Shown piece after piece: positions 10,369 through 12,020 of a stretch of 24,779 nt of DNA (position 1 is its first letter; every line of letters starts with the position of its first letter). Source of the DNA: a virus; UHGV virus genome UHGV-0038615, one strand, 5' to 3'. A program made the translations under genes and the position numbers. Under the pieces are notes generated by a model. The model saw only the letters and a program-made list of their open reading frames with translations. It searched no databases and was not told the origin of the DNA.

Positions 10369-11739
10369 TTAGTTAATATCCAGAATTGAGGTTGATTGCA
10401 TGCCGCTACCGGCGGAAAGCGGTTCGTTTAACAGGGCGTGCATGGTCGCCCACGCAATATCCGCGTGGCTGGCCTCTTCGCTGCGGCTGGCCTCATAGGT
10501 GGAGCTGCGCCCGCTGCTGGTCATGGTTTTACGGATAGCCATAAATGACTGTGTGATGTCGGTCGCACCGGCGTCATATTCCAGACATCCGCGACGGATG
10601 GTGTCTTTCGCTTTCAGCACCATCGCAGTTTTCATTTCCGGCGTGTAGCGAATGGCACGCGCCGCCGGGAAGAAGGAGCGCACGAGCTGGTAAACCCCCT
10701 GGCCGATGCCGGTCGCATCGATGCCGATGTACTCGACGCAATATTTCCCGGTCAGCTCGCGGATAGCCTCGGCCTGCGTCGCAAAATCCATCCCTTTCCA
10801 CTGGTGACGCTCAAGGATGCGGAACTTGCCACCGGGAACCAGTGGTGGAGCCAGTACCGCACAGCCAGCGCTGTCGCCGGTGTGCGACGGGTCATAGCCA
10901 ATCCAGACCGGGCGCCAGTTAAACGGACGGTCAGAGAACGGCGCAAAGTCCTCCCATTCTTCCATCGCATCGACCATGCAGCGCTGTAGCTCCTCGAACG
11001 GGAATACCGACGCTTTATCGTCAACAAACTCGCACATGAAGAGGTTGCGAAAATCGTCGGCGCTGTTTTCCTGTTTCAGCTGATCCAGATTAAACAGGGT
11101 GCATCCCCCGGCGAGTGCGTCCTCGATGGTGACAATCTGCCGCCACTGGCCGTCCGGGCACAGCACGCCACCGGCGAGCGCTTTGTGGCTGATATCGATG
11201 TCGACGCGCTCGCTCGCGTTGCTGCGTCCCCGGTTAAACAGTTCACCTGACCAGAACGGATACGCGCCATTTGCCAGCGTTGAGGGTGTTGAAAAGTAGG
11301 TGGTGCGCAGGTGGGACTGCGACGCCATCCCCGAGGCGACTTTGCGCAGCTTCTGAAAGTTGGGGATCCAGAAGATTTCATCGACATACAGGTCGCCGTT
11401 ATGGCTCTGCGCAGTGTTTGAGTTTGTCCCGAGAAAAATCAGCTCTGCGCCGTTGTTGCCGATGACAATCGGGTCTCCTGACAGGTCGACGTCGACCATG
11501 CGCGCAAAGGCGATGATGTACTTTCGGAACACGTAAGCCTGCGTCTTACTGGCTGACAAAAATATCTGGTTTTGCCCGGTCTTAAGCGCACGCAGGAGGG
11601 ACTCACGCGCAAAGTAGAACGTCGCGCCAATCTGGCGTGATTTGAGGATGTGGCGAATTACGGGCGCACTGAGGGCGTCGTTGAAACGGTGCTGTGGGCG
11701 AATCCGGGGCTGTCGGAGCTGGGCGTTATTCTGCCGCAC
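10369..11739 (-). pseudogene. P: Terminase large (ATPase) subunit, P2 gpP-like, apparently 5'-truncated (456 codons from a GTG; frame open only 19 codons further upstream)
   Basis: Terminase-like Walker A KSRQIGAT lies only about 30 residues from the ORF start; P2 gpP is about 590 aa as I recall; an in-frame stop lies at 11797-11799 and the scaffold/capsid genes expected upstream are absent. Confidence 0.7.
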
Positions 11740-11798
11740 GGCACGACAATAGAACTGCCCGAAACCGACAGCGCCCCGAAAACTGAAACGGTGAATTT

Positions 11799-12020
11799 AT
11801 GGGACTGAGTGTGGAAAAAATCACGACGTTTTTCGCTTACTGGCTGGCCGTGGGGCTGGCGTATTTCGGGGCTATGTCCCCCGAAAAGCTGGCGCTCTAT
11901 GTGGGGAGTGCCTGCGCCATTTTTACCGCGCTGACGAATTACTGGTTTAAGCGTAAAACCTACCGCTACCTGACCTCACTTGGACCCGATAAGGGGGCTG
12001 CCCGTGAGCTCAATCATTAA
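11799..12020 (+). CDS. Class II holin, pinholin-like, 73 aa with two predicted TM helices
   Basis: Two hydrophobic segments (ITTFFAYWLAVGLAYFG, LALYVGSACAIFTALTNYWF) then a charged tail; immediately upstream of the lysozyme gene. Confidence 0.65.
   Translation: MGLSVEKITTFFAYWLAVGLAYFGAMSPEKLALYVGSACAIFTALTNYWFKRKTYRYLTSLGPDKGAARELNH

Follow-up and report, generated by a model that had tools for sequence, protein, structure and literature searches.

The stretch of DNA analysed here (the window; UHGV virus genome UHGV-0038615, 24,779 nt) is filled by a P2/186-like (Peduoviridae) prophage of Escherichia coli that is complete from attL to attR. The 28-nt attL core AAAAAATAAGCCCGTGTAAGGGCGTTTA lies at the left prophage end at positions 55-82 and recurs with 93% identity as a direct repeat (D1) at 24706-24733. 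The latter copy is the attR core, which the repeat together with an Rfam match places inside the 3' end of the cyaR small RNA gene. As the Rfam family CyaR_RyeE (RF00112) matched 24709-24779 on the minus strand with 80.2 bits, the 3' 70 nt of the CyaR gene are present, and the window end cuts the gene. The att core of the prophage is the CyaR terminator region, and the insertion site is the 3' end of cyaR, adjoining yegR. Both flanks are those of E. coli, with yegS-yegR on the left and, by synteny, cyaR-yegQ past the right end.

The hallmark genes integrase, C, Cox, A, Q, P, X, lysis, R, S, V, W, J, I, FII, E, T, U, D and Ogr were recognised by PHROG and Pfam in the P2/186 gene order, and the element is colinear with Enterobacter phage ENT4 and phage 186 by blastn. 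It thus resembles the P2/186 plan of Q-P / O-N-M-L-X-lysis-R-S-V-W-J-I-H-G-FI-FII-E-T-U-D-ogr with a cos site and, between P and O, divergent late promoters that depend on an activator. However, its nucleotide identity to P2/186 is just 82-89%, its repressor and cox are of the P2 type, its cargo is different, and head, fibre and sheath genes are missing here. The integrase, the C-type repressor, Cox, replication gene A, the cos-like site, the portal, V, W, J, FII, E, T, U, D and Ogr are all apparently intact. The cos-like site GGCGAGGCGGGGTAAGCAT is a retained 19-mer at 6503-6521 (plus strand), and 6354-6528 aligns with 89% identity to the cos region of the circularised phage 186 genome. The portal gene Q (9360-10367, minus strand, 335 aa) matched phrog_68 with an E value of 2.3e-171 and is 100% identical to the portal of an intact prophage by tblastn.

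Phages ENT4 and 186, the prophage of E. coli WCHEC005784 and that of E. coli WP2-S18-ESBL-07 were used in turn as references. The best of them was the intact prophage of WP2-S18-ESBL-07 (NZ_AP021944.1, 1807.2-1839.8 kb; its coordinates are given below as L007), which sits at the same cyaR-yegR locus and has the same gene order. L007 matched the window in three colinear blocks with 99.96-99.98% nucleotide identity over all 24.8 kb, cargo genes included. Window positions 1-11667 correspond to L007 1711-13377 (99.96%), 11657-17845 to L007 17414-23601 (99.98%) and 17844-24779 to L007 27410-34345 (99.96%). Outside the two gaps between these blocks, the window differs from L007 by only 6 SNPs and one 1-nt indel. 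The middle block contains no substitution at all, and its sole difference is an extra T at 14835. Unlike the element in the window, the WP2-S18-ESBL-07 prophage has a 4,047-bp P-to-X segment, a 3,810-bp I-to-FI segment and an unbroken 328-aa cargo gene, so that a reconstructed intact length of about 32.5 kb stands against 24.65 kb here.

Close relatives were found among the complete E. coli genomes. The terminase side of the first gap was matched at 99% or higher by 34 genomes, and the X-lysis-R-S side at 100% by 5. Besides WP2-S18-ESBL-07, strains SFE8, QA-1986 83, GPEC1222 and GXU-23-25-310 matched the window at 100% over 11657-13900, the segment to which this comparison was limited. The near-identical intact relatives come from wastewater (judging from the strain name) and from swine, chicken and buffalo isolates. 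On both arms, the WCHEC005784 prophage, which is intact, shared 99.8% identity with the window, but in the X-to-I late region (11657-17848) its identity fell to 91-94%. We had considered that a foreign segment of 6.2 kb might have replaced 14 kb of the prophage; this idea was dropped, because WP2-S18-ESBL-07 is 99.98% identical through the centre too. Hence, the central difference of WCHEC005784 is ordinary mosaicism between two intact prophages, and its divergence is a sign that P2-like prophages at the cyaR-yegR locus have recently exchanged modules. The WCHEC005784 prophage also carries a different cargo between S and V (DUF262 + HEPN).

The first gap is a deletion of 4,047 bp (L007 13369-17415) with its junction at 11657-11658. 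In an ungapped three-way reading, the match to the left parental site stops at 11658 and that to the right one begins at 11657, so the two sites have 2 bp, 'AT', in common. The same position was reached with other references. By megablast against phage records, the terminase match stops near 11655-11667 in all P2/186-like phages; by pairwise blastn, ENT4 and 186 independently showed terminase homology up to 11658 and X homology from 11657-11659. The breakpoints correspond to positions 3254 and 7298 of phage 186, and the deleted interval to 186 3255-7297. A first-pass annotation of this DNA, made from the sequence alone, had proposed a deletion junction in a P2-like prophage with a 5' truncation of terminase gene P, and alignment with the near-identical intact prophage bears this out. 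It had placed the junction at 11737-11800, whereas the alignment maps the breakpoint to 11657/11658, about 80-140 bp further left.

The parental sites of this junction also share an imperfect, slipped similarity of 11-12 nt (AATACGGTGCGC versus ATTACGGGCGC). Because of this similarity, BLAST reported a gapped overlap of 11 nt at 11657-11667. Read as an 11-nt microhomology the overlap is overstated, since the ungapped exact share is 2 bp.

According to the L007 annotation and protein comparison, this deletion removed codons 1-160 of the 589 codons of P, the 166-bp P/O intergenic region, the whole of O (scaffold), N (major capsid), M (small terminase) and L (head completion), and codons 1-18 of X. 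When the proteins of the deleted genes were searched by tblastn from attL to attR, O, N, M and L had no homologue in the window, while the positive controls, portal gene Q and tube gene FII, were detected. As the window spans the whole element, the head genes are not encoded elsewhere in it. The first-pass annotation had listed O, N, M, L and X as missing; the first four are indeed gone, but 49 of the 67 codons of X have been kept.

On the left of the junction lies the 3' remnant of the large terminase gene P (10369-11658, minus strand), consisting of codons 161-589 and the stop and devoid of its own start codon and promoter. It forms part of a 456-aa minus-strand open reading frame (10369-11739) with a GTG start at 11737-11739, whose first 27 codons are antisense to X. 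By local protein alignment, residues 28-456 of this frame equal residues 161-589 of intact P, so that 429 of 589 residues are kept. The Pfam domains Terminase_6N (positions 2-215 of 215; ATPase) and Terminase_6C (nuclease) are both complete in the remnant. What has been lost is the 160-residue N-terminal region preceding the ATPase, where the phage 186 record annotates a putative helix-turn-helix motif. The first-pass annotation had estimated a loss of roughly 115-130 codons and taken intact homologues to be about 460 aa long, but the intact protein has 589 aa and aligns only from residue 161. The motif KSRQIGAT, noticed about 30 residues from the N-terminus, does start at residue 33 of the 456-aa frame. 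The minus-strand stop at 11797-11799 followed by 19 codons to the first start is likewise present by direct reading; these 19 codons had been assigned to the terminase frame, but together with the first 27 codons of the 456-aa frame they are antisense to X. The chance extension through antisense X supplies the GTG start, and gene callers may for this reason report a misleadingly 'full' 456-aa terminase.

On the right of the junction, the plus strand at 11650-11808 translates to VANYGRTEGVVETVLWANPGLSELGVILPHGTTIELPETDSAPKTETVNLWD followed by a stop. Positions 11659-11808 of this stretch are the 3' remnant of tail gene X, with codons 19-67 of 67 and the stop; the remnant protein YGRTEGVVETVLWANPGLSELGVILPHGTTIELPETDSAPKTETVNLWD is identical to residues 19-67 of intact X. 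It matched Pfam Phage_tail_X (PF05489) with an E value of 4e-16 at model positions 18-57 of 60, as well as phrog_46, and the interval 11737-11800 falls within it. The holin-like gene at the position of P2 Y (11799-12020, plus strand, 73 aa; phrog_20, E value 2.9e-20) is intact, corresponds to L007 17556-17777 and, as it does there, shares 10 nt with the end of X. Its ATG at 11799 had been correctly noted, but the claim that it directly abuts the terminase does not hold, as the 49 remaining X codons lie between them. The genes for the endolysin, LysB, LysC and the tail completion proteins R and S follow at 12004-13931 (plus strand). All of them are intact according to PHROG and the L007 annotation, and they are cut off from the deleted P_O-type promoter.

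Promoter loss was judged from the annotated promoters of phage 186, as a motif scan alone is not decisive. In 186, p12 (3753-3790), the B-activator site (3798-3817) and pV (3828-3865) all fall within the interval that matches the first deletion. Homology to this annotation supports two further proposals of the first-pass annotation, namely that the divergent P/O late promoter region is gone and that the lysis cassette and R/S are left without their usual promoter. When the window was scanned for TGT-N12-ACA activator boxes, the sole one in a late-promoter position was found upstream of V (15563-15580). In the intact prophage, TTGTGTCAG is common to the P/O and F regions, but neither of them contains a perfect box of this kind. 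Altogether, three of the four late promoter regions are deleted here. A simple consensus scan predicted no sigma-70-like promoter on the plus strand between 9200 and 12300. Directly 3' of the cargo operon at 6521-9264, a hairpin (CACAGCCC...GGGCTGTG, about 9271-9295) looks like a terminator that would block read-through. Judging from the promoter loss and the consensus scan, the X remnant, the holin, endolysin and LysB/C genes, R and S have no evident source of transcription and are probably silent.

The second gap, which is absent from the first-pass annotation, lies 6.2 kb downstream of the first junction. Here 3,810 bp are missing in comparison with L007, and the junction at 17844-17845 shares 'TA' within an imperfect TA(T/C)CT. 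The deleted segment comprises codons 97-176 of baseplate gene I, the tail fibre gene H, the fibre assembly gene G, the intergenic region upstream of FI with the F promoter, and codons 1-385 of sheath gene FI. In phage 186 the region upstream of FI, identified by synteny, contains terminator t45, a B site and pJ. No match to H, G or FI was found in the window by tblastn. The 5' remnant of I (17559-17845, plus strand) retains codons 1-96 of 176, and its reading frame continues, out of phase with FI, into the final 38 nt of that gene; the Pfam domain Tail_P2_I is matched by residues 7-97 alone.

Between S and V, the 328-aa predicted membrane cargo gene (14245-15232) is frameshifted by the extra T at 14835, which falls within a T-run, and is split into two overlapping open reading frames at 14221-14964 and 14825-15232. 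The cargo gene had no match in PHROG or PADLOC, nor in Pfam above the curated cutoff. The extra T may reflect either true pseudogenisation or a sequencing error in the homopolymer.

Other cargo is present in the window. A two-gene operon at 6521-9264 lies directly after cos in the gpA-gpQ interval and is identical in the intact relatives. The cos-proximal gpA-gpQ interval has been described as a hotspot in P2-like phages (PMC9122126). The first gene of the operon encodes a 542-aa AAA_15/AAA_21/DUF3696 ATPase that is AriA-like and matched NsnB (4.9e-55) and PDC-M55A in PADLOC, and the second encodes a 370-aa partner with a weak PDC-M55B match only. The operon probably encodes an anti-phage system. 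Between ogr and attR, the gene at 23616-24467 specifies a trypsin-like peptidase of 283 aa that ends in a C-terminal SEC-C motif. Its protease domain resembles those of the PADLOC RT-Protease_XI models, and in WCHEC005784 an IS150 lies just upstream of the peptidase gene. A 27-nt terminator-like hairpin occurs on either side of the gene (23318-23344 and 24614-24640, the copies being 96% identical), an arrangement that looks like the insertion of a 1.3-kb moron at the ogr terminator.

We also searched for the two junctions in other genomes. With 601-bp queries spanning each junction, no place in 5,426 complete E. coli genomes covered at least 80% of either query. The exact 35-36-nt patterns of both junctions had no match in the GTDB representative genomes, and that of the first junction had none in metagenome contigs. 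In an exact-protein look-up, neither the 456-aa frame with the P remnant nor the 135-aa fusion of the I and FI remnants was on record. The absence of the junctions elsewhere, together with the near-identity to intact relatives, points to a recent and strain-private event.

With an intact, near-identical counterpart, contiguous missing segments, and essential genes absent or cut, the element qualifies by sequence comparison as a defective (cryptic) prophage that has arisen by internal deletion. We are highly confident that it is a P2/186-like E. coli prophage at cyaR-yegR that was recently inactivated by homology-independent internal deletions. The first deletion joined a point 480 nt into the minus-strand gene P to a point 54 nt into the plus-strand gene X, presumably by means of the 2 bp of exact identity beside the imperfect 11-12-nt similarity, and left the two remnants head to head, each without start codon and promoter. 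As a result, no capsid should be built and no DNA packaged, and the lysis cassette and R/S, without a driving promoter, would probably stay silent. Together with the second deletion and the cargo frameshift, this would make the element a locked-in, non-productive prophage that is expected to form no virions. The integrase, repressor, cox, A, cos, ogr and the accessory, defence-type cargo have been kept. Both junctions consist of parental sequence only, with 2 bp of exact share each and no filler, and the joining was probably illegitimate, by slipped misalignment or by the joining of ends with very short homology. A random join would share at least 2 bp with a probability of 0.16 at one junction and 0.024 at both. 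The use of microhomology is thus mildly favoured, although 2 bp is weak evidence for any particular mechanism. No Chi site was found near the breakpoints in either the window or the intact prophage.

Other explanations were weighed against this one. The geometry given in the first-pass annotation, with a breakpoint at about 11797-11800, the terminase abutting the holin, X wholly deleted and about 115-130 codons lost, draws on features that are all present, namely the stop at 11797-11799, the 19 open codons, the GTG at 11739 and the ATG at 11799. Its probability is nevertheless practically nil, as 11659-11808 is identical to the 3' end of intact X, translates on the plus strand to X residues 19-67 and is recognised as Phage_tail_X, and as terminase homology ends at 11658 against three independent references with 160 codons lost. 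An assembly artefact, in which the prophage of the strain is intact and the assembler skipped about 4 kb twice, is very unlikely, because there is no collapsible repeat at either junction, where just 2 bp are exactly shared. Although the junctions are known from the assembled window alone and the sole indel outside the gaps is homopolymeric, which hints at error-prone sequencing, both junctions are clean, without filler or ambiguous bases, and two independent skips of unique sequence would be unusual. It is extremely improbable that an IS element or a site-specific recombinase made the deletions: IS activity is known at a related prophage, as the IS150 of WCHEC005784 is inserted after ogr, but neither junction carries an IS sequence, an inverted repeat or a recombinase site, and no repeat family of the window touches them.

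Functional reduction was considered as well, in which the element would be on its way to a tailocin or to a helper-dependent, satellite-like island, selection having shed the killing and virion genes and kept att, int, cox, A, cos, ogr and the defence cargo. The integrase, repressor, cox, A, cos, ogr and the gpA-gpQ hotspot cargo are indeed intact, and the accessory loci were spared by both deletions. The length of 24.65 kb is also about that of a P4 dimer, which P2-size heads can hold. However, we give this reading only a slim chance, as P, X, I and FI are cut within their reading frames (at codons 160, 18, 96 and 385, respectively), one cargo gene is itself frameshifted, and the allele occurs in no other genome, with no sign of spread or retention; a single example, moreover, says nothing on selection. 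A related proposal, a long shot in our view, is that the prophage with its two deletions might have been selected as a 'disarmed' element, with neither capsid nor fibre or sheath and with its lysis genes severed from their promoter, that gives repressor immunity and hotspot defence and could be mobilised by a heteroimmune P2-like helper. Mobilisation by a helper is conceivable, given that att, int, cox, A/ori, cos and ogr have all survived intact and that a P2-size head would have room for 24.65 kb. If true, such a 'disarmed', mobilisable prophage would be a satellite in the making.

With a P2-type tail and lysis set and no head genes, the element resembles an R-type tailocin, but R-type tailocins keep sheath, tube, fibres and regulated promoters. 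A tailocin was ruled out here, as sheath gene FI, fibre gene H and assembly gene G are deleted along with the head module. A P4-like satellite or PICI was ruled out too, since the backbone is that of P2 itself, with portal, tail and lysis genes 99.96-99.98% identical to an intact phage genome. No satellite-type function, such as helper hijacking of the sid, psu or delta type, was found among the annotated open reading frames of the window.

Inactivation by internal deletion, the reading that we prefer, is an instance of deletional prophage decay, an event type that is already well known, and no new phenomenon is involved. The import of the locus beyond annotation is small. An annotation should mark the prophage as defective and treat P, X, I and FI as pseudogene fragments, and the map should be corrected to a junction at 11657/11658, a truncated X, a loss of 160 P codons and a second deletion. 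As two deletions and one frameshift stand against only 6 SNPs, the element can serve as a clean, datable illustration of early prophage decay.

A later stage of the same process is found in E. coli K-12. Its cryptic prophage PR-X is a P2-like remnant of 629 bp at the same cyaR-yegR locus and consists of ogrK and the yegZ pseudogene, a gpD fragment. As K-12 carries PR-X there, P2-like prophages do decay at this locus. PR-X represents the end stage of deletional decay, whereas the element in the window, with 24.65 kb and most genes intact, represents an early one. A 20-nt stretch at 3-22, on the host side of attL, repeats 24638-24657 on the phage side of attR with 95% identity. This repeat beside attL suggests a trace of an older P2-like right end by yegR, like the PR-X of K-12.
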